64,000 nt of DNA from a virus. The stretch lies in IMG/VR virus record IMGVR_UViG_3300044646_002092, positions 1 through 64,000 of that record. The stretch is one strand, 5' to 3'. Below are positions 6,301 through 36,618 of this stretch, in pieces. Both the position numbers and the translations under genes were made by a program. The notes beneath the pieces are model-generated. The model was given only the letters and a program-made list of their open reading frames with translations, did no database searches and had not been told where the DNA came from. Every line of letters begins with the position of its first letter. Within the stretch, counting starts at the first letter, position 1.

Positions 6301-6315
6301 AGTTATATTGTAATT

Positions 6316-6499
6316 CTGTACTTATTTATCATAACATAGTTAAAATCCTGTACCTCAGTCTGTACTTTTTTTGTGTTAGCTGCTCCAACCTCAATATAAA
6401 CGTCAAATTACCTTGTACCTAACTTTGTAATTTCCCTCTTTCTGTTTGTACTTTTGGTCAAATAATGCCCTCAAACGTCGAGGATTCGTTAAGGTACAA
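6316..6499. repeat. Six dispersed YTGTACYT copies upstream of 5581..6300
   Basis: Copies at 6316, 6348, 6360, 6413 and 6446, plus an inverted copy at 6493. They bracket the minus-strand extended -10 TGtTATGAT (6328-6336). Confidence 0.6.
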
Positions 6500-6750
6500 G
6501 ATTTTCTTTTATTACTATTATTATTGGAGACACTTTTGAATTAGCCATGCGGCGTATGAGCTAGTACCTTAGTATCTACCTCACTTAGCATAGGAATCTC
6601 TGTGTTTTGCCATAGTATCTAGGTAAATTCACGCTATGTATGAAAGTTCGAGTACTATCGAACAATGCTGTGATGGCGCAAACTCGTTGCTATATGTTAT
6701 ATCGATGAGTGGGAATATTGATGAGCGTCGATATATCGAGAGAGTGGAAG

Positions 6751-6769
6751 CAAAATGATAATCATTCTC
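6751..6769. promoter_or_regulatory. Fur box-like operator
   Basis: CAAAATGATAATCATTCTC matches the canonical GATAATGATAATCATTATC at 16/19 positions. Confidence 0.55.
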
Positions 6770-6892
6770 ATTCTCGTTTAACTCTCGTATATACGAACAT
6801 CACATGAGCATACCCCATACTTCCCTCACACAAATATCATATATCCCTTATCTATCTCTAAGTCAAATATCATCCTTTTCATTATAAATTCA

Positions 6893-6935
6893 GTATCATA
6901 CGATACAGATTAAGCTACACTCTATACTGTATAAT
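6893..6935 (+). promoter_or_regulatory. NtcA-type activated promoter candidate
   Basis: GTATCATACGATAC (GTA-N8-TAC, palindromic GTATC/GATAC) followed by 23 nt and then TATAAT (6930-6935). Confidence 0.45.
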
Positions 6936-7319
6936 GCTTTCAGCGCATAAATAAAGCGCTCAGACAACTTTCACCAAGGAGAAATAAAAAAGAACCTCAC
7001 TTACCCTCACATAACGAACATGAAAATAATATAATGGGAGATTAAAAATATCCGATTGAAAATAGCCCCAAATTTTGAAGAGATAAGCCTGACCCATAGG
7101 ATTAAGCATACAAATACAGCTAAGCAGACTAACAAAGTCTTAGAGATGCCAAAAACTAGCAGTGTAGAGAGATATTAAGTTAACCGCTAATAGGAATATC
7201 GCGCACGATACTATATGCTAATACGAAAATTAGAGGAGCAAAAAGAATTTTCAAACTTTTTTATTCCTACAGTGTATAGCTTACAGCCACTTTTAAACGT
7301 TTACATACTACAAGGGGGC

Positions 7320-7348
7320 TTTACATTCTAGAGATAACCTGATAGATT
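7320..7348 (+). promoter_or_regulatory. Sigma70-type early promoter
   Basis: TTTACA-17 nt-TAGATT. Confidence 0.6.
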
Positions 7349-7449
7349 AAATCTCATGGAAAACGAGTTAAACGAGCCGCAAGGCAAGCACTTCTAATCC
7401 ATAGCTGGGTTGGTTTCCAGCACTGCCAAAAAGATTTTTTCTTTAGGGC

Positions 7450-7478
7450 TTGCAATTTAAAAGGAACTAAGCTAAGCT
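7450..7478 (+). promoter_or_regulatory. Sigma70-type early promoter
   Basis: TTGCAA-17 nt-TAAGCT. Confidence 0.65.
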
Positions 7479-7549
7479 ACTAAGGCGGTTGAAAAAGACT
7501 GCAAAAACAAAAAAGAGTGCTTAACTCTTTACCCAAACATTAAGCGACA

Positions 7550-7568
7550 GTACCTTGAAAACTGAATA
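7550..7568 (+). promoter_or_regulatory. rrn-type boxA antitermination element
   Basis: GTACCTTGAAAACTGAATA resembles the cyanobacterial rRNA ITS boxA (GAACCTTGAAAACTG) and sits just after the promoters. Confidence 0.55.
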
Positions 7569-8068
7569 TAGACTAACGTCAAATCACATCAAGTAATCAG
7601 TCTTGAGTGTCAAAACTTAGTACCTGTGTAAAAGATATCCTGTGATAAGGTTGCGAGTGGAAAAGTACGGTTAGTTATGTGAGAGTGAAAAGATAAGACT
7701 GAGTTATTCGGAAAATACTCGTAATTCAGCTTATACTTAGTATCTCGTGATTGGCTCTACGGGGCAAAACGTTGTCTATCTTGCTTAATGGGTAGAATCG
7801 TAAGAATAATTAAGCCTAGCATTGCTAGACATAACCTAACGATGGGTTGATACATCGCGTTACTTCTTTCTGTAAAGAGAGGGTAACTAAGACAAAAACT
7901 AAGTAGCTCTGACTATTCAAGATTGCTATAGGCTACTAGCTGAAATACCGCTAGAGACAGCTAAGACATATTCTTAGGTCTAATACACTATCCAATCTAA
8001 TAGAACGCTGTAACAGGCAAAAAGTGAGCTATGTAGTCTAGTCCTAACTGTGCTGTAAAGCTTTTCAC
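7569..8068 (+). ncRNA. Candidate large structured ncRNA (~500 nt), family unassigned
   Basis: No ORF. Closing stem TAGACTA 7569-7575 / TAGTCTA 8033-8039; c(UACG)g hairpin 7753-7764; GUAA-capped hairpin 7858-7886; long hairpin 7692-7733; CTAAGA/TCTTAG 7960-7976. Confidence 0.55.
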
Positions 8069-8093
8069 TTGAAATAACTAAGGAGATAAGATT

Positions 8094-27821: not shown

Positions 27822-28000
27822 GTCAATACTTCTTTTGAGGTTGAAAGACAATTATCTTTCTTAAATTGATTAGGTCATTGAGATTCTACTTGGCACAAAC
27901 GTACAGATGCTTCTCCAGTCTGTACCTCTTTAAATCTGAGTTGTCAGATGTTGTGTAATGGCAAGACATCTTAGTAGAATTGACCGAGGAGACTTACAAC
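27822..28000 (+). ncRNA. omegaRNA scaffold of IsrB element 1
   Basis: Starts GTCAAT pairing with ATTGAT. Blocks CATTGAGA, ATGCTTCTCCAGT, CAAGACATCTTA and TTGACCGAGGAGACTT are shared with 60348-60545. Confidence 0.75.
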
Positions 28001-28025
28001 TAGCAATAGGATTATATCCAACTAA

Positions 28026-29117
28026 ATGATTAGAGTTCCAGTATTAGACATCGACGGTAATCCGACTATGCCAACTAAAGCCTCAAGAGCTAGACGTTGG
28101 CTACGCGACGGTAAAGCCAAAGTAGTCCACAATGACCTTGGAGTATTCCAAATTCAACTTCTCCAAGAAGCTTCTGGAAATGTTCAACAAGATATTGTTG
28201 TCGGGATTGACCAAGGTAAGCTGTATACGGGGATGGCTATACAGAGTAGTAAAAGTACTTTGTTGATGCTGCATCTTGAGTTACCCCTTCCAGTAGTAGG
28301 TTTTCGTATGAAACAACGTGCAATGCTTCGTAAAACTAGAAGAAGTAGGAGAATAAACAAACGACTAAAATTCAAGTTACGAAATCATAGGCAAAAAAGG
28401 TTCAACAATCCAGCTAGAAAAGAGGGGGTTATTCCCCCATCTATAAACTCTAATAAACAGTTTGAGAGGAGGGTAGTAATTGAATTAAGTAAATTATTTC
28501 CTCTTAGTCATTGTGTTTTTGAATTAGTTAAAGCTAAAGGTAGTAAAAGTTTCAGTCATGTAATGATAGGTCAACGCCAACAAGAAAAATGGTTAAACTC
28601 TATTTTACCAACTATAACTATAGAAGGATGGAAGACCTCTATACTTCGAGATAAATTAGGCTTAGTTAAAAACAAAGCTAACAAATCTATTCAAGAACCT
28701 GCTACTCATGCGATTGACGGTGTAGCCCTTGCTTGTCATCACTTTATTAAGTATGTTGAAGACAAAGTTAATCAGTGTGCTGATTGGTTTGGTGAGGTCA
28801 AAGTTACTAAATCTCAATTTGTTATTGCACGACGACCTAGTTATTCGCGCAGACAGTTATATCAGCTTAACCCTAAAAAACGTGGTAAATATAAGTTGCA
28901 CGGAGGGTCAAGTACACTCAATAATTTCAGAAAGGGTGACATAGTTCTATATACATCCCAAACTAAAACAATTTTGGGATATTGTTCAGGGGCAACATTA
29001 AAAAATAGACTTATATCTATTTCTGATGTAAATTGGCGTGTTATTGGTAAATTTGCTGTCACTAGATGTAAGTTAATATCTCGGTCTTGCGGAATATTGA
29101 TAAAAGTAACTAACTGA
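28026..29117 (+). mobile_element. isrB: IsrB (RRXRR/PLMP + split RuvC, no HNH), IS200/IS605 OMEGA element 1
   Basis: NPTMPT (PLMP), GIDQG (RuvC-I), Arg-rich bridge helix RKTRRSRR, FELV (RuvC-II), THAIDG (RuvC-III); 363 aa. Confidence 0.8.
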
Positions 29118-29170
29118 TAGATACTTATGGGAAGAAGAAGGAAAAAACAGAACATTTTGGAAGGACTAAG

Positions 29171-30214
29171 ATGACTATTGAAATTCCAGACAATTATTAC
29201 TCTTTGAAAGCCAAGATAGATTATCTTCGCGAACGGAAACCTGTAATCGATTTCCCAAAGAAAGTTGCAGTCCCGCACAAACCTATTGATTTCAGTAACC
29301 ATCTTACAGTGGCTGATGCAAGAAAATATGCAGCCTCTCTGCTAGACTATGCAGAAAAAAGAGAAGTCTATGAAAAAGAATATGAAGTTGCTAAAGCGGC
29401 AAACGAAGCTGCACGACCCAAAGCAGCAGCTATAGAAGCGCAGATTGAAGAACTCATTCAAGAAGATGTTGGCTTAACCAAACTCGGATTGTCAGAAAAG
29501 AAGGTTGCAAAGCTCTGGCAAAAAGCTTGGGACGATGCTAACAGCGAAGATGAAGCTATCAGTAATTTGCGCGAACTTGTAGAACTTTTCGAGGATTAAT
29601 ATGACAATTGAATTTCGCAATACTGGTGTCATTTGCATGGTGCATACAGCCAAAGAAGATGAACTTCATTCCATTGATTTAGGAAATTATTTTGTCAAGT
29701 CTGATACGCAAGAGCAAGTACTGATTACCAGTGAGAGCCTTGCCAATCAATATGGACATCTGGTTAAAGTACCAATTTATACTATGAAAGACAAAAATGA
29801 GTACCACCTCCCAATCTGAACCAAAATTTCCACCTGACATCTCTTTTGGTAAATTTGACCAAATCATAGCATTTGAGGCTTATATCATCGATGGTGACAC
29901 TATTCGAGATATGTTGAGTGCGATGGACTGCAAAACCGCATCACAAGCCTACCGACGCGCTAAGCTACTTGAAGTTTTAGAAGGAGATACCAATGAACTT
30001 CGCTAATTTTGCATTGGGTGTGAGAGATATTGTATCAGAGATGACACTATCTGAAGCCGCTAGCTTAGAAGTTGAATTTAGACTGTTTGACCAACTATTA
30101 CCTATTGGCGAGATTCGTGTTGACAGAATCAATAGTAAGGTGTATATCAATGCCTATCCAAGCAAATTAAATACCTCTCCAGATAGACGTACAGAAAAAG
30201 AAGTTGAGTTATAG
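29171..30214 (+). other. Hypothetical CDSs 29171..29599, 29601..29819, 29797..30006, 29993..30214
   Basis: Packed co-oriented ORFs. Confidence 0.65.
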
Positions 30215-30222
30215 TAATAAAT

Positions 30223-30980
30223 GTGAGGGAGATATAGTGCAGATGGAAACTCTTGCTCAATCATTGAATAATGATTGATGGCGCAACATAAACGTTAAGA
30301 CGCACTCCCACAATAATGTTTAGTAAGTCGGAGGTGTATCTTCAAACAAACTAAACAACTGGATGGCGGTGAATAGGCAATAAACCGCAGGAACACGTAG
30401 AGGTCATCGGCGTTTTCGCTCATTAACTCCTCATAACGAGCTACTAATGTCCAGCACTATTCCAATCTTATGTGGCTGAGGACGGTTGAAAGCTGAACCC
30501 GAATAAGTAAGGGCATGACTGACTAATTGACACCCCTGAAGTCAGATATTCGATAGGGTGGTCATCAAAGGTTCAAATCCTTTCATAAGCGTTTCGGGGA
30601 ATATCGTAAATTCCTTATACACGAAAGCAAAGAGGTTGTGGTCTTAGGATTTCCCTCTTTGCAATCTGGATATTCGAGGAATAGTCAATACTCGATTTGT
30701 GGGTTCGTTCCTGCTAACCCCAGCCGTAACTTGAGCCTAAGTAATCAAGCCCTGCGAAGTTGGGTCTAGGACAGGGCTATCCAGCCATATCATCGTTTCG
30801 GAGGGTATCGTAAACCCTCTGCACCTCACCTTAGTATAAGCTCTTGCTCCGTCTTAGGATTAGCTGGGATTTGATGCCCAAAGCGAGTTGCCTTGTCAGT
30901 ATGGTCAATCTTATTAAGGTGTACAGCACCTTGCGAGATAATTTCAAACTGAAGCGCCCCTTGAACTTAGGTTAGGGGTA
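30223..30980 (+). ncRNA. Cluster of structured non-coding RNA elements (~750 nt)
   Basis: No long ORF; many perfect stems, a tRNA-like unit, two cloverleaves and a duplicated covarying hairpin; ends in a GCCCC/GGGGT hairpin at 30956-30985. Confidence 0.7.
30466..30591 (+). ncRNA. tRNA-like RNA with a replaced/extended anticodon arm (not a decoding tRNA)
   Basis: Acceptor CTTATG/CATAAG, D-arm GCTGAGGACGGTTGAAAGC, perfect T-arm AAAGG-TTCAAAT-CCTTT; a ~65 nt nested stem replaces the anticodon loop. Confidence 0.6.
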
Positions 30981-31001
30981 TTTTCATATCTAAAATAATC
31001 A

Positions 31002-31571
31002 ATGAAAAATATTGCAATAGGAAACATCCCGAAACATAAATATGTCTGGGTAGACACCAATTTCACTCATAAGCAATTCATAGGTTATATTCCTGCTGTT
31101 TGGTTTGCACTCAATAGCGTTGCTGGTCGAAGTTGGGGTTTGCATGTTATGTTGGAGTGCGGCGCAGTTTTTCGGAACTTACCACCCCACGCAATACTTT
31201 TTGAAGACCCGTTATCATTTACCGCTAACCTTTGGGACATTAGACAAGCTCAGCGTTGGGATTGCTACAGCCAAAATTGGAGTGCAATCGAATATAGGTA
31301 TCTAGCCAATTTACGATGCAAGGTAGCTATTGACCCTGAAATAGCCTTTCTAGGAACTTACCTCTTTTCTGTCTGCCCTCTGGATGACGGGTTCACAGAT
31401 TATCCTGACCAAGCCAAAGAGTTCATATTCATCCAACTTGATAACGGAAGATTAACAATTCAACCAACAAATTACGTTTTGTTCAAGGAAAACAGTTTTA
31501 CAACCAATGATGAACTATTATTCCCTAAAGACTTAAAAGTAAGCGACTTAATTTACTCATCGGAGAAGTAG
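31002..31571 (+). CDS. Conserved-type phage protein of unknown function
   Basis: 189 aa with GRSWGLHVMLECGAVFRNLPPHA and AQRWDCYS motifs. Confidence 0.7.
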   Translation: MKNIAIGNIPKHKYVWVDTNFTHKQFIGYIPAVWFALNSVAGRSWGLHVMLECGAVFRNLPPHAILFEDPLSFTANLWDIRQAQRWDCYSQNWSAIEYRYLANLRCKVAIDPEIAFLGTYLFSVCPLDDGFTDYPDQAKEFIFIQLDNGRLTIQPTNYVLFKENSFTTNDELLFPKDLKVSDLIYSSEK

Positions 31572-31748
31572 TATGGATGACCATTATGATGCTCAAGTCT
31601 ATTCCCTAGCTTCAGGCTGGCTTCAAGACCGTTTCGCTGAAGATTACGTTTATTCAACTAAATATTCAGCTAGGTTACTTCCATTTATAATTTGTTTGCA
31701 ACAAATCGTTTTGGCATTGCTTGCTGACCCCAACTATCAGGAGGACTT

Positions 31749-33510
31749 TTGATTATGGCACGACTAACTAACAGCAAGGACGTATACCTGCCTTACAAAT
31801 CGACTGACCAAATTGCGCGTGAAGCTGTCGAAGCCCACGAAGCACGTTTTACTCAATCGGGCTGGCAACTTGCCAAAATCATTATTCCTATTGCATTTTT
31901 GGTATTGTTGGTCAACGACATTATTTTGATTCAGGTGTTGTAATGGAAATCGAAACTATTGTTGAGCAGTTTTTAGCTTCGTCTTCTAAGAGTAAGGTTG
32001 AAGTTGCCAAGTATCTTCAGTTCGTATATGACAGTGGCTTTAATAAAGGTATCTCTGCCGCCCACTCTCTAGCGGAAGAATGTTCTGTACCTGACTCTTA
32101 CTCACAGCCTTGCGTCGATGATTTAGCCGTAGAGATTGCTGACTTGAAACGGAAGATTTAATCATGTACCAAATACAATTCTTTTCTGCCAAGCATAATC
32201 GGTGGTTTTTAATGTGGCATCATGGGGAAGAAAGTCTTGCTAGGATGGTTAGATTTTTTGAAGTTATGTGTAATCTCGAACCTCGACTCAAACGTCGCAT
32301 TATCGACTTAAACACTGGTGCAATCGTCTATACCTAACTTTAGACAGATGCACCAAACATCTACATCCCCTAGACTTATAAAACAAAGTAAAACAACAAA
32401 CACACATGGCAACAGCTAAAACCAAGTCCGATAATACCGACGTAGTTATTTCTTCAGCAGCAGCAGCGCTTGTTAAGGCGACCGCAAGTATCCAAGAAGC
32501 GTTTAAGTCTATTGATGGATTGAATGAAACATCAGAAACCCTTACTCGCGATATCGCATCAAAGAAAGCTGAAGTTGCAAGTCTGGATGAGCAGTATCAA
32601 ACCAAGGCTCGACAAGCGGAAGTTGATTTCAATTTGAAGCTTCAAGAAACGAAGGATAAGACTGTTACCGAATACCTTAAGTCAGTTGGTAAGGAAGCAG
32701 TTGACACCTCTATCTACAGGGCGTTACAAAATGAATTGACCAAAGTTGTTGCTGAACGTGATGCAGAAGTCAAGAAGGCAGTTGCAATCGAGAATAGTCG
32801 CTTGACTCGCGATTTCAACTCTGAGAAAGCGCTACTTCAAAGCCAGTTTGAAACTTCTACTGCCAAGCAACTCGCTCAAATTGAATCTCTCACCGAACGT
32901 AATGGCGCACTCAGCAATGAAATCGCTAAGCTGTTCAAGGAAATCGAAGCTCAACGTGCATTGACTGCGGAAGTCGCTAAGGCTGGCTCAGTTGGTTCTA
33001 TTAACGTTGGCACTCCTAATAACCGTTAAGTTTCACGACTGATTTGGTACACACTATACGGCTCCTTCGGGAGCCTTTTTATTAACATGAACAAAGCACT
33101 ATTTAACAAAATCCAAGAACGCTACCTCGCTAAGATTGCAGAAAAGAATAGTTGGGGTAAGAATGAAATCAAACAGTTGTGGCAAGCTACGGTATCTGAA
33201 GTATTGGTCGAGAATTTGACTGATGAATGACACTATCAATAAAATCGCTTCGCTCATGGCAGAAGAAGAGTTTGCATGGAAAGAATCTCAGATAATGCAA
33301 ACTATGTTAAGTGAGAATGTATCTTTGCCAGAGGAGTTAAGTAAACTTGGCTGGGGTTTTGGTCTAAAACAAGATTCTGGGCAGTGGAACGTACTTACTT
33401 GGGGTAAATTTACGTCTTGCAACTTTGTCGAGGAGTCGCGGTTTGAGTCAAAGGTAAAACAAGAGTTTGAGGCTATTTGTAAAGAGGCTATGCAGAGGGA
33501 ATTAAGTTAA
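31749..33510 (+). other. Hypothetical CDSs 31749..31943, 31943..32161, 32406..33029 (coiled coil, 207 aa), 33223..33510
   Basis: Co-oriented ORFs; heptad pattern in 32406..33029. Confidence 0.65.
33060..33080 (+). terminator. Intrinsic terminator
   Basis: GGCTCC-TTCG-GGAGCC followed by TTTTT. Confidence 0.85.
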
Positions 33511-34130
33511 TGTTGAAAAATTTTGAAGTTGAGTGGAATAATATAGAGGATTTATCTAAATTACATAAAATTATAAAAGCGAGAATTTGCTCTTTAAAAT
33601 CCGATGGAGCTACTTTTGCTAGTAAGGAAGAAAAAAGGAAAATGATTCTAGATTGTTGTTTTTCAATTTATGAAGCAAATCTAGACCATATATTTGTAAA
33701 AGACAAAGATGCGGCAAGTAATTATTATATCTACGCACATTGCAACCCACTACAGGAATTAGATGCTATTTGCAAAGCTAAACCTGCTTTTGCGGCTACA
33801 TTAGGCTTAAATTTTGTTCCTTTCTATGTTGGAAAAGGTACGGGAGATAGAGCTTATAAACTAGAGCGTAATGAGACTTATAGGAAAGTCATGCAATTAC
33901 TAAATGCTAGAAATTTAAAACCAGACATAAAAATAGTCTCTAATAACTTACAAGAAGCTAAAGCATTAGAATTGGAAGCTAAATTAATAGATATTTTTGG
34001 TCTACAAATTTACGGTGGTTGGTTGACAAATTTAGATGAAGGTCACGACTCTAAGTTAAGAAGGCAGAGGTATGCTAAAGAGTTTAGTGTATTAAATCAA
34101 AAACGTTTTCAATTGTTCTCGGATAATTAA
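33510..34130 (+). CDS. GIY-YIG (LEM-3-like) endonuclease, probably homing
   Basis: YYIYAH...FYVGKGTGDRA...EAKALELEAKLIDIFG...LTN. Confidence 0.75.
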   Translation: MLKNFEVEWNNIEDLSKLHKIIKARICSLKSDGATFASKEEKRKMILDCCFSIYEANLDHIFVKDKDAASNYYIYAHCNPLQELDAICKAKPAFAATLGLNFVPFYVGKGTGDRAYKLERNETYRKVMQLLNARNLKPDIKIVSNNLQEAKALELEAKLIDIFGLQIYGGWLTNLDEGHDSKLRRQRYAKEFSVLNQKRFQLFSDN

Positions 34131-34149
34131 TTTCTACACCACAATACGC

Positions 34150-34185
34150 AAAAAGGAGATGCACATAATACATCTCCTTTTCTTT
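34150..34185. terminator. Bidirectional intrinsic terminator
   Basis: AAAAAGGAGATG-loop-CATCTCCTTTT, followed by further T residues. Confidence 0.75.
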
Positions 34186-34426
34186 ACGCTACTACCAAGC
34201 TAGATTTGCGGGTAAAAGCTACAATTGAGTTTTTGCCATTTGTTTTCTTGTCCCATAGTCCTTACTCATAAAGTAAAAACAGTGATAACTCTTACTAAAA
34301 CGTCGATACCTTTATATGCCCTTGTAGTGGGGCTTGATAGTAGTTAATGGACATAGCATTAATCGAAAATGCGTCCGCCTTAGTTCAACGAAATCTTTCA
34401 AGACATATTAATATTAACATAACACT

Positions 34427-35623
34427 ATGAAAAAAGCTTGCGGTTTCCGCTTCCAAGGTCACTACGTCTACCGTCAATATTTTGAAGAGCATGGCAGATA
34501 CAAAATCATGGTGTGGGTCGCCTCTAATCCTCCAGAAGAAGAATTGTGCGCTGATGTTGCCTTCTGCGGTGACTCTCACAACGAATGTATGGACAAACTC
34601 AAGCAATGGCTTGAAATCAATAACGATTGGGTAAACAAAACAGATGCCTAACACTAAATTTGAACTACCCGAAGACTTGAAAGAGATTACAGATTTCGGG
34701 TTTCAAGTCTTCCCAGAAAACGTTGTAGTTTATCCTCCTGATGTGTTGGTATTAACTTTAAATCACTACCCTTTAGAGGCTGTAGCTAAGTTATTTTCCT
34801 CTTTACAGACCACACAAATAAGATACTACGACATCACTTTTGACGGTGCATATCAAACTAAACTGAATCCAGATGGAACAATTACTTGCAGCCCTTACTG
34901 CACGGAAATTAACGGAAAGGAAATAGGCAGAACTCCTGTGAAACTAAAAATTCTGAAAGAGTTTAAATCAATACAATGGAAAGAAACAAATGGCAACACT
35001 TAAAAACCTCAAACCAGACCAAATTCTTTACAAGGTCAGAAAAGAAAAGGCTGGTCGTACAACAATGACTCGTCAAGTACTCGATACCATTCGTATTATC
35101 AGTGTAGACCTCGAAAATGAGAAGGTGGTGGCTAGTTATCGTGGCAGGAAGGGAAACTATCGCGATTGGCAACTCAAGTCTTGGCGAGTTAAAGAACCTC
35201 AAGTAAAGAGTCGTGATATACTCGGAAACCCTCGATACTAATCCTCCTCACGATAGATGACCTGCCCCGACCATCACGCTATTATTTATAAGCAATCAAG
35301 CAAATAACTAAAAACACATGAATCCTGATACCGCAGTTGCTTACGAACCCGAAGTTGCACAACAAGTATTGGCAGCAATCGAAGAAGTTGAGCCAGTTAC
35401 CGAAGAGCCAGAATTTATCTCGAACGAAGACTATCGTGAATTGTTGGCGCTTGCTATCAATGATGCTGAAGTTTGGGTTTCTCAAGCTGAAAGTCTCATC
35501 AACAAGATTGACAATGGCGAAAAAATCAAAGGGACGAAACTAAACGGCGCTGTTCGTAATGGTCGTCTCGAAATTCTTCGCTCTTCACTAACCGACGTAA
35601 AGACTGCCAAAGTAAGCGGCTAA
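34427..35623 (+). other. Hypothetical CDSs 34427..34651, 34644..35003, 34990..35241, 35318..35623
   Basis: Packed co-oriented ORFs. Confidence 0.65.
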
Positions 35624-35682
35624 CAACAACTAAAATGGCTAGGCGCAATTCCTAGCCCTACTATTACAAGGAAAATTACACC

Positions 35683-36618
35683 ATGTCTTCAATTAAATTA
35701 GTCGCATCTCAAGCTTCTCGTCAACAAAAGCCTCTCAAATGCCTTATTTCTGCCCCTACAGGCGGAGGAAAGAGTCTTGGGGCATTGTTGATTGCTAAAG
35801 GTATAACAAATGGCGGTAGAGTCCTCGCTCTCGACACTGAAAATCGCCGCATGGATTTAAAAGTGGGCGACCCTCTTCTTGATGGTTGGCTTTGGGATAG
35901 AGTCGCACTTGCTCCCGACGAAGTGACTTCACATCATTACATTGCAATGATTGAGAAAGCTATTGAAGAAGGATACGAAGCACTCATTTTGGATTCTACT
36001 ACCCATGAATGGCAATGGATTCTCGCACAGTGGAGCGCTCTTGGCGGTAAATGGGGTGTTCAGTGGGATAAAGCTTCTCGTCCTCACTTCGACTTTGTGA
36101 AAGCAATTATCAAAGCGCCTATCCACATCATCTGCACAGCTAGGGCTAAGATGACTACCGAGCAGCAGACAAACGATGCTACTGGTAAGAAAGAAGTTGT
36201 AAAGCTTGGACTTTCTAATCAACAGGAAGGAAACTTCGAGTATGACATGGATTTTCATTTCCGTATCAACGGTACAGATAACTTCGCAGTTGCAGAAAAG
36301 CAGGAAGCTGGTCTTTTCGATGGGGCTTTTAAGATTTCCACTGAAACTGGAATTCGACTCAATTCTTTTCTGTCTCAAGGTGAAACTCCTGCTGAAGCCA
36401 AGCGTCGCGAACAGCGCTCTAGACTGAACGAACTACAAATGAAACTCATTGGTCTAAAGTTACTAGACAAGGCTCAGGCAGAAAAAGAAATGGCTGAGGT
36501 GCTATCGAAGCCTAGCGAAGAAGTGATTGCTTATGGTAAATCTCTTCGTGCTAAATACGATAAGGCTATTGCTGACGAAAATGCTAAAAGTGGCACTACT
36601 CCCGAAGTGGCTGCTTAA
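35683..36618 (+). CDS. Sak4-like AAA_24 ATPase / ssDNA-annealing recombinase
   Basis: ISAPTGGGKS, LALDTEN, LILDSTTHEW, ICTARAK and EYDMD motifs; followed by an SSB-like gene. Confidence 0.8.
   Translation: MSSIKLVASQASRQQKPLKCLISAPTGGGKSLGALLIAKGITNGGRVLALDTENRRMDLKVGDPLLDGWLWDRVALAPDEVTSHHYIAMIEKAIEEGYEALILDSTTHEWQWILAQWSALGGKWGVQWDKASRPHFDFVKAIIKAPIHIICTARAKMTTEQQTNDATGKKEVVKLGLSNQQEGNFEYDMDFHFRINGTDNFAVAEKQEAGLFDGAFKISTETGIRLNSFLSQGETPAEAKRREQRSRLNELQMKLIGLKLLDKAQAEKEMAEVLSKPSEEVIAYGKSLRAKYDKAIADENAKSGTTPEVAA

Follow-up and report, generated by a model that had tools for sequence, protein, structure and literature searches.

What is encoded between positions 30215 and 31001 of the virus record IMGVR_UViG_3300044646_002092, where a dense plus-strand block of small genes is interrupted by 787 nucleotides (nt) without an open reading frame (ORF) of at least 60 amino acids (aa)? 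The IMG/VR record is a 116-kilobase (kb) contig, about 80% complete, of a freshwater Pseudanabaena-type phage, and its first 64 kb (64,000 nt) form the stretch analysed here, hereafter the window. A sequence-only reading had picked out the same ORF-free gap and proposed an uncatalogued noncoding RNA of several modules, made as a polycistronic precursor. We find that a single plus-strand unit makes one contiguous, abundant noncoding RNA of about 730-760 nt, extending from about 30223/30229 to 30959/30985, and we hold it to be very probably a genuine structured RNA gene of a family that is new when compared against the Rfam models. A cmscan search of 30000-31200 with permissive filters and E<=10 returned no Rfam family at the locus and one chance match of snoRNA level outside it, so the locus was rightly called uncatalogued. 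Nor is it a product of chance: its helices covary over nine loci, and RNA contigs from four studies cover the interval. What is new here is the RNA family, the evidence for its expression, its approximate ends and a model of its modules; in kind it is a large structured phage RNA at a tRNA island, which is a known type.

Expression of the locus is evident in environmental transcriptomes from lakes. Of the words sampled from 30150-31050, 74-88% were present in each of six RNA-seq runs, which came from five studies. Logan contigs of four RNA-seq runs, each from a different study, were then placed on positions 28000-36000 of the window. Every run contributed exactly one contig at the locus, which showed 0 differences from the window and aligned to the locus over its full length: 30229-31030 in run X15, 30232-30957 in X16, 30229-30959 in X18 and 30231-30959 in X19. 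None of the four runs had a contig on 28000-30228, which comprises 2.2 kb of upstream genes, or on the 4.3 kb downstream at 31031-35300. Because carry-over of DNA would cover the flanks as well, the uncovered flanks indicate a discrete RNA, present in far greater amounts than the phage mRNAs. The contigs are unbroken over every module border, including 30466/30467 and 30592, in all four runs.

The ends of the RNA are approximately defined by the same contigs. They agree within 3 nt at the 5' side across the four studies and also at the 3' side, where X15 alone reads on to 31030; coinciding contig ends are in general a weak hint. The RNA as assembled occupies 30229-30959 on the plus strand (about 731 nt). 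Three of the four contigs end at the 5' foot of a terminator-like hairpin followed by a U run (30957-30985, plus strand), which corresponds to the terminal hairpin of the sequence-only reading and is conserved in two related loci (L001 and L007), while the fourth reads through it to 31030. A primary transcript of about 30223 to about 30985 is probable. The only other RNA contigs within 28000-36000 were short pieces of lower depth at 35308-35826 in two runs, over an ORF of 101 aa and the beginning of a Sak4-like/AAA_24 gene.

Protein-anchored and pattern searches identified nine distinct homologous loci. These are the window (with three near-identical short contigs), the Pseudanabaena phages PA-SR01 (L001) and Pam2 (L002), and the contigs L007/L097, L021/L099, L023, L033, L059 and L098. 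PA-SR01 and Pam2 are the sole relatives of the source contig among 50,697 phage records, only two of which carry the RNA locus; the homologous sequence lies at about 120.3-121.25 kb in PA-SR01 (MT234670) and about 114.35-115.9 kb in Pam2 (ON014754). All nine loci lie in PA-SR01/Pam2-like phage contigs, one locus per phage, and each is a gap without ORFs, 0.45-1.5 kb long, that keeps its position in the gene order. DNA patterns for the two core modules described below were also run against contigs from viruses, metagenomes and genomes; all matches outside PA-SR01/Pam2-like phages were without a complementary stem or fell in coding DNA. A more distant relative (L009/G152, 69% complete) held no copy of the locus.

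Comparison of these loci resolves the RNA into a predicted chain of locally closed structured modules, which are swapped by recombination among related Pseudanabaena phages around an invariant core of two modules, M1 and a module of the CUGGA type. M1 (30318-30356, plus strand) consists of a 7-base-pair (bp) stem, GUUUAGU/ACUAAAC, and the loop GGAGGU(G)...UCUUCAA. It is present in nine of nine loci with an invariant loop, and its last (closing) pair varies between U-A, U-G and C-G. The GGAGGU(G) of the loop resembles a Shine-Dalgarno sequence and has no start codon after it. In the plan shared by the CUGGA modules, helix P1 (CUGGAU/RUCCAG) is followed by P2, a hairpin of 5-6 bp whose 12-nt loop reads RAAUAGKCAAUA, and a variable arm comes next. 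Over all CUGGA modules, P2 occurs in seven unrelated, fully complementary stem versions that carry one unchanged loop.

Two such modules occur in the window, which the sequence-only reading had recognized as cloverleaves A and B. The type-1 module (30359-30454, plus strand) is closed by P1 CUGGAU/GUCCAG and has P2 GCGGU/ACCGC with the loop GAAUAGGCAAUA(A), followed by inner hairpins; across loci, its P2 stem comes in three sequence versions, each of them fully complementary. The type-2 module, which belongs to the core (30666-30784, plus strand), is a three-way junction formed by P1 (30666-72/30778-84), P2 (30674-78/30691-95), P3 (30709-13/30772-76), P4 (30719-24/30759-64) and P5 (30730-34/30745-49), with an invariant P2 loop, GAAUAGUCAAUA, and the segment J, UUGUGGG.

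The type-2 module was aligned over the nine loci (alignment A3), and pairing was counted for a specified structure of 28 pairs. P1 and P2 were paired in 100% of cells and P3 in 98%, and overall 89% of cells were paired versus 77% in shuffles. Twelve of the 28 pairs had changed on both sides, giving a covariation score of 0.351; shuffles scored 0.160, with none of 500 reaching the observed value, and control structures in which the partners were slid by 1-3 columns paired in only 21-41% of cells. P3 undergoes a concerted switch from UCCUG/CAGGG to UCAUG/CAUGG; an alternative pairing, GCCCUG/CAGGGC, was dropped since it is broken in L059 and L001, whereas P3 covaries perfectly. As judged from these alignments, the substitutions point firmly to helices under selection. 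G-U cells are found on the plus strand (19 in A3, with further ones in M0, M1 and domain J), and A-C cells are absent from P1-P3. Plus-strand G-U pairs would be A-C mismatches on the other strand, which places the RNA on the plus strand; the terminator and the tRNAs embedded in relatives are likewise on that strand. No coding frame is conserved, with each frame broken in some of the relatives.

A covariance model built from the type-2 modules, R1, gave 107-140 bits for the type-2 copy in every locus. Type-1 copies were matched by it over their full length as well, but weakly, with E of 0.001-0.02 in L098, L002, L021 and L001 and 0.56 in the window (30357-30456), which supports regarding the two types as putative paralogues. 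R1 was not found in 151 sampled cyanobacterial genomes and one Leptolyngbyaceae metagenome-assembled genome, a sample searched with strict filters and without a cellular positive control that does not amount to proof of absence.

The remaining modules are accessory. M0 (30223-30312, plus strand) is closed by GGGAG (30227-30231) and CUCCC (30305-30309) and contains a GCGC/GCGC stem and a perfect 9-bp hairpin with a GAAU loop at 30257-30278, as had been read from the window alone. In an RNAalifold comparison of the four loci that have M0 (the window, L001, L033 and L059), this hairpin is kept through two changes from A-U to G-U and one compensatory pair; L007, L021 and L023 have a small GCAA-loop hairpin instead. 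Two further hairpins, the repeat modules 1 and 2 of the sequence-only reading, also recur as predicted. H1 (30590-30626, plus strand) consists of CGUUUCGG followed by a stem of 5-6 bp and the loop AUCGUAA, and H2 (30794-30822, plus strand) is a second copy of the CGUUUCGG / AUCGUAA hairpin. The two form repeat D1, which has a length of 26 nt and 81% identity between copies 204 nt apart. Over four copies in three loci, 100% of cells in the H hairpins pair, four of six pairs are compensatory and the loop, AYCGUAA, is invariant.

Between H1 and the type-2 module, a 9-bp hairpin (30627-30662, plus strand) pairs GCAAAGAGG with CCUCUUUGC and carries the 11-mer GUCUUAGGAUU, which recurs exactly at 30851-30861. 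It is 90-93% identical in L007 and L021, and its stem is invariant and so offers no test of covariation. The second copy of the 11-mer falls in domain J (30827-30921, plus strand), where a 10-bp closing stem, CACCUUAGUA/UAUUAAGGUG, surrounds GUCUUAGGAUU and GGUCAAUCUUAUUAAGG. Domain J is 88% identical to Pam2 and 81% to PA-SR01, and three pairs of its closing stem are compensatory.

The tRNA-like element (30467-30592, plus strand) has an acceptor-like stem of 6 bp, a D arm of class-II-like form and, at 30567-30583, a T arm that fits the consensus; the anticodon arm is replaced by about 75 nt. It was seen only in the source phage and the near-identical contigs, and it is a weak call. ARAGORN reports it in intron mode only, as 'tRNA-SeC(tca), 47-nt intron' with a mismatched anticodon stem. 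From the Rfam tRNA model only the T arm (30566-30583) is recovered, at 13.5 bits where the gathering threshold is 29, and the other permissive Rfam hits were chance ones of snoRNA level. The assignment as a tRNA was rejected on these grounds, and the absence of a decoding tRNA from the locus, anticipated from sequence, holds: ARAGORN in default mode found no tRNA in the whole 64-kb window and only a permuted transfer-messenger RNA (tmRNA), at 34.1-34.4 kb.

High-scoring segment pairs between the loci are mosaic. L059 matches 30207-30464 at 95% and then resumes at 30664. In L033, 30205-30364 is fused directly to 30666-30819 at the CUGGAU repeat, and L007 and L021 have only 30620-30785 in common with the window (90-93% identity). 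RNA modules are 93-95% identical between phages, compared to 45-48% aa identity for the adjacent protein (L059, L021), and this excess argues for selection on the RNA. The 3' part of the locus includes two genuine tRNAs in L023 (3270-3342 and 3418-3489) and two in L098 (8169-8244 and 8249-8320), all on the same strand as the RNA. These suggest that the site is an RNA island that exchanges tRNAs and other modules, in agreement with the earlier view that the locus sits where a tRNA cluster might. The first of the L023 tRNAs scores 41.9 bits in Rfam, and ARAGORN reads no three-base anticodon in it ('tRNA-???'). The source contig has an ordinary tRNA cluster elsewhere, at 92.7-93.4 kb, where six tRNAs (92741-93417; Met, Gly, Asn, Lys, Arg, Thr) occupy a 1.1-kb ORF-free gap.

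What such an RNA might do is suggested by its loops. The best explanation overall, which we favor somewhat on balance, is an abundant modular RNA that serves as a multivalent scaffold or sponge; as a mechanism, scaffolding or sponging is offered tentatively. Invariant loops on stems that covary freely, with two copies of each, are an arrangement typical of docking sites, and here they would hold an external partner: a protein, a trans RNA or, through the Shine-Dalgarno-like loop, the 30S subunit. Any tRNA or tRNA-like part would be carried as cargo or would serve as a signal for processing or stability. Within the RNA, neither the invariant loops nor GGAGGUG was found to have a conserved complement at homologous positions in all loci. 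Intramolecular and homotypic kissing are thereby disfavored, and a partner that is a protein, the ribosome or a trans RNA is favored. About 40 nt past the type-2 module, four of eight loci compared have a CACCUC or CCUCC element.

Several observations count against this explanation or temper the evidence beneath it. The folding z-score of the whole stretch is unremarkable (-1.6 on the plus strand and -3.0 on the minus), so that folding energy is uninformative and the case rests on covariation and expression. Covariation was counted over about nine distinct loci of one phage clade, and the counts are inflated by relatedness. The contigs give no strand, exact ends or depth along the RNA, and the runs were picked for holding the locus. 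GGAG may pair with CUUC, which would leave the Shine-Dalgarno-like loop partly closed. A candidate partner protein for the RNA was not found: the 116-kb contig, about 80% complete, yielded no Ro/TROVE, RtcB, CCA-adding enzyme, RNA-binding or RNA-repair gene. Finally, modules that are lost without replacement disfavor one global fold and would fit a precursor of separate RNAs.

That precursor is the strongest competitor, although we consider it rather unlikely. Here, the transcript would be cut at the module borders, for instance by RNase P and RNase Z where the tRNA-like element lies and by RNase E or III at other borders, and the several stable products, 40-130 nt long, would act separately as decoys, sponges or mimics. 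RNase P substrates are recognized through the acceptor stem and T arm, features that 30467-30592 possesses, and in phage T4 two stable small RNAs are made from the transcript of a tRNA cluster. Each module is closed by its own helix and is gained, lost or swapped independently of the others, and the genuine tRNAs embedded in L023 and L098 need excision, which makes at least some cutting certain there. Against this, assembly is continuous over all borders in the four RNA runs, with no break or loose end, and the locus was the only part of 28000-36000 assembled apart from the short pieces at 35308-35826, although ordinary RNA-seq libraries under-sample RNAs shorter than 100 nt; partial processing would be compatible with the contigs. 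The polycistronic precursor of the sequence-only reading therefore stands in part. One transcript does span all modules, but the contigs show a contiguous RNA of about 730 nt and not the discrete small RNAs that were proposed, and cleavage is beyond the reach of such contigs.

A bolder reading would add the RNA to GOLLD and ROOL as a third independent class of giant phage RNA, one that acts on host translation, either because the GGAGGUG loop engages the 3' end of 16S rRNA or because a self-assembled particle carries tRNAs or their mimics. We regard this as improbable. If it were true, the cultured pairs of PA-SR01 and Pam2 with Pseudanabaena would be a tractable system for learning what such RNAs do.

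GOLLD and ROOL are phage-encoded, located at tRNA islands, sometimes with tRNAs in a variable linker, strongly expressed and without an assigned function (bioRxiv 10.1101/2024.12.08.627333). The size, phage origin and high expression of the present RNA, together with tRNAs in or near a variable linker, match these reports (bioRxiv 10.1101/2024.12.08.627333), and its apical loops are invariant and A-rich. It could on this basis be a third class of self-assembling 'ornate' phage RNA, in which RNA alone forms a homo-oligomeric cage like those of GOLLD and ROOL. Loop-loop and A-minor contacts would hold the cage together, and tRNAs might be enclosed or ribosomes engaged. Such a cage is quite unlikely, however. 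Neither the GOLLD nor the ROOL model matches, and the invariant loops are complementary neither to themselves nor to any conserved segment of the RNA. No pairing at long range or in pseudoknots is supported, and relatives dispense with modules, unlike a cage protomer, which needs a fixed global fold.

The comparison with these two families is still the closest available. Like GOLLD (RF01998), the RNA is large (700-800 nt or more), phage-encoded and strongly expressed, lies at or within tRNA islands and combines a conserved core with variable parts. The location typical of GOLLD, a phage tRNA island with tRNAs sometimes inside the RNA, is found here through L023 and L098, which does not by itself confer membership. 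It differs from GOLLD in having no sequence or structure match (cmscan at E<=10 over 30000-31200; a scan of the whole window at gathering thresholds also gave no GOLLD) and no supported long-range or pseudoknotted fold; its modules are locally closed, dispensable and arranged like beads on a string, and it is known from a narrow clade of Pseudanabaena phages only. With ROOL (RF03087) it shares the status of an abundant phage or prophage RNA near tRNA islands with no known protein partner, but no match to the model was obtained at E<=10, and the conserved kissing loops and pseudoknots of ROOL have no counterpart here. GOLLD and ROOL are therefore nearest in way of life, while the model match that defines those families is lacking.

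Two further systems offer partial parallels. The T4 stable RNAs C and D (species 1 and 2) are about 120-140 nt long and are excised by tRNA-processing enzymes. The present RNA resembles them as a non-decoding structured RNA co-transcribed with, or replacing, tRNAs in a phage locus, but is seen in the data as a contiguous RNA of about 730 nt. The sponge RNAs CsrB and RsmZ are abundant and display the same short GGA loop on repeated hairpins with unrelated stems. By analogy only, the present RNA also repeats a short loop on stems of unrelated sequence; its loops are RAAUAGKCAAUA and AYCGUAA instead of GGA, with only two copies of each.

The ORF-free, repeat-rich stretch might also act in cis, either as a structured leader or attenuator for the genes from 31002 onward or as a DNA site such as an origin or packaging signal, since the next gene (31002-31571) lies directly downstream in the same orientation and one contig passes the terminator to 31030. 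We see very little likelihood of this. RNA cover ends at about 30959 in three of four runs, short of the gene, and the downstream gene is not constant between loci, with an IscB-like insertion in L033 and tRNAs and other genes in L023 and L021. Strand-specific G-U pairs and compensatory changes also indicate helices of RNA.

Slighter still is the chance that the locus is the relic of a tRNA cluster, made up of decayed tRNA genes without present function. The T-arm-like motif at 30567-30583, the real tRNAs at the same site in relatives and the several poor tRNAs that ARAGORN calls in all loci at lowered thresholds would be expected of one, but the loops are invariant over covarying stems whose pairing is 98-100% maintained, the module identity of 93-95% exceeds that of neighboring genes, RNA abundance is high, and the tRNA model has no match at E<=10 to the CUGGA modules, M1, the H hairpins or domain J.

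Least probable of all is a guide RNA of the omega type for an IscB/IsrB-like nuclease, which was raised by a 363-aa RRXRR + HNH protein at 28026-29117 (Pfam E 1e-42) and by a similar gene directly after the RNA locus in L033, and which is made unlikely by the HEARO-like RNA that each nuclease gene has directly upstream (window 27822-27997, 45 bits against a gathering threshold of 83; L033 6051-6230, 44.6 bits), by the lack of such a gene near most loci that bear the RNA, and by the absence of a HEARO match in the RNA locus itself. These HEARO-nuclease units (window 27822-29117; L033 6051-7343, right after the RNA locus) are separate mobile units and not users of the ~730-nt RNA, and the IscB/IsrB-like unit appears to move around within this phage group.

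Other assignments were considered and rejected. HEARO or omega RNA (RF02033) has no match at the locus, and the separate HEARO-like RNA serves the gene at 28026-29117. No tmRNA match lies in the RNA locus, and the permuted tmRNA of the phage sits at 34093-34437. A bacterial Y RNA (YrlA) was set aside for want of an Rfam match at the locus and of a TROVE or RtcB gene in the contig, itself about 80% complete. Self-cleaving ribozymes of the kinds known from phage tRNA loci (HDV-like/theta, hammerhead, twister and others) are not suggested by the sequence, as no Rfam ribozyme model matched at E<=10. A type III antitoxin of the ToxI kind would present a tandem array of near-identical 34-45-nt repeats; none is present, and there are only two-copy families with copies 204-210 nt apart, the longest being D1 with its 81% identity.

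Upstream of the RNA, a block of about 45 nt (TAAATAYCUC...GCAGAAAAAGAAGUUGAGUUAUAGUAAU) is kept in nine of nine loci whatever the upstream ORF and whether or not it overlaps the end of that ORF. In the window, the candidate promoter block covers 30165-30219 on the plus strand and ends in a -10-like TATAGT (30210-30215), with no evident -35 element. A scan for consensus promoters did not flag 30165-30219, and the block may be a promoter or operator of an unusual type.

Annotation of the cultured relatives can be corrected accordingly. PA-SR01 leaves the locus unannotated, and in Pam2 a minus-strand 'hypothetical protein', Pam2_140 (L002 2942-3157), has been called on domain J and is probably a mis-call; the PA-SR01 and Pan/Pam genome papers make no mention of the locus. 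GOLLD and ROOL are among the best-known RNAs of unassigned function, and the locus adds an unrelated family with the same way of life. Its RNA outnumbers the flanking phage mRNAs in lake metatranscriptomes and comes with a simple, testable module model with invariant loops. Because homologs are present in the cultured phages PA-SR01 and Pam2, whose hosts can be grown in the laboratory, knock-outs, pull-downs and structural work are feasible.

Two other features of the window were observed in passing. The tmRNA is of the permuted, two-piece type (34093-34437, minus strand) and scores 51.6 bits in Rfam against a gathering threshold of 47; the tag predicted by ARAGORN is GKNSIVAFTRKSSLVVA. No RNA contig covers it in the four runs, which is an absence of cover only. 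Relatives encode tmRNAs at the same place in the gene order (L097 14245-14571 and L059 13618-13893), on the plus strand and without nucleotide similarity to that of the window, and the tag of the L097 tmRNA is VNNIVSFSRKATPVAA. The second feature is a 1.8-kb AT-rich, ORF-free region at 6301-8093 between divergently oriented genes, which has no Rfam match at gathering score. Parts of it are 69-82% conserved in PA-SR01 and Pam2, where it is unannotated, and it could be a regulatory region, an origin or another RNA locus.

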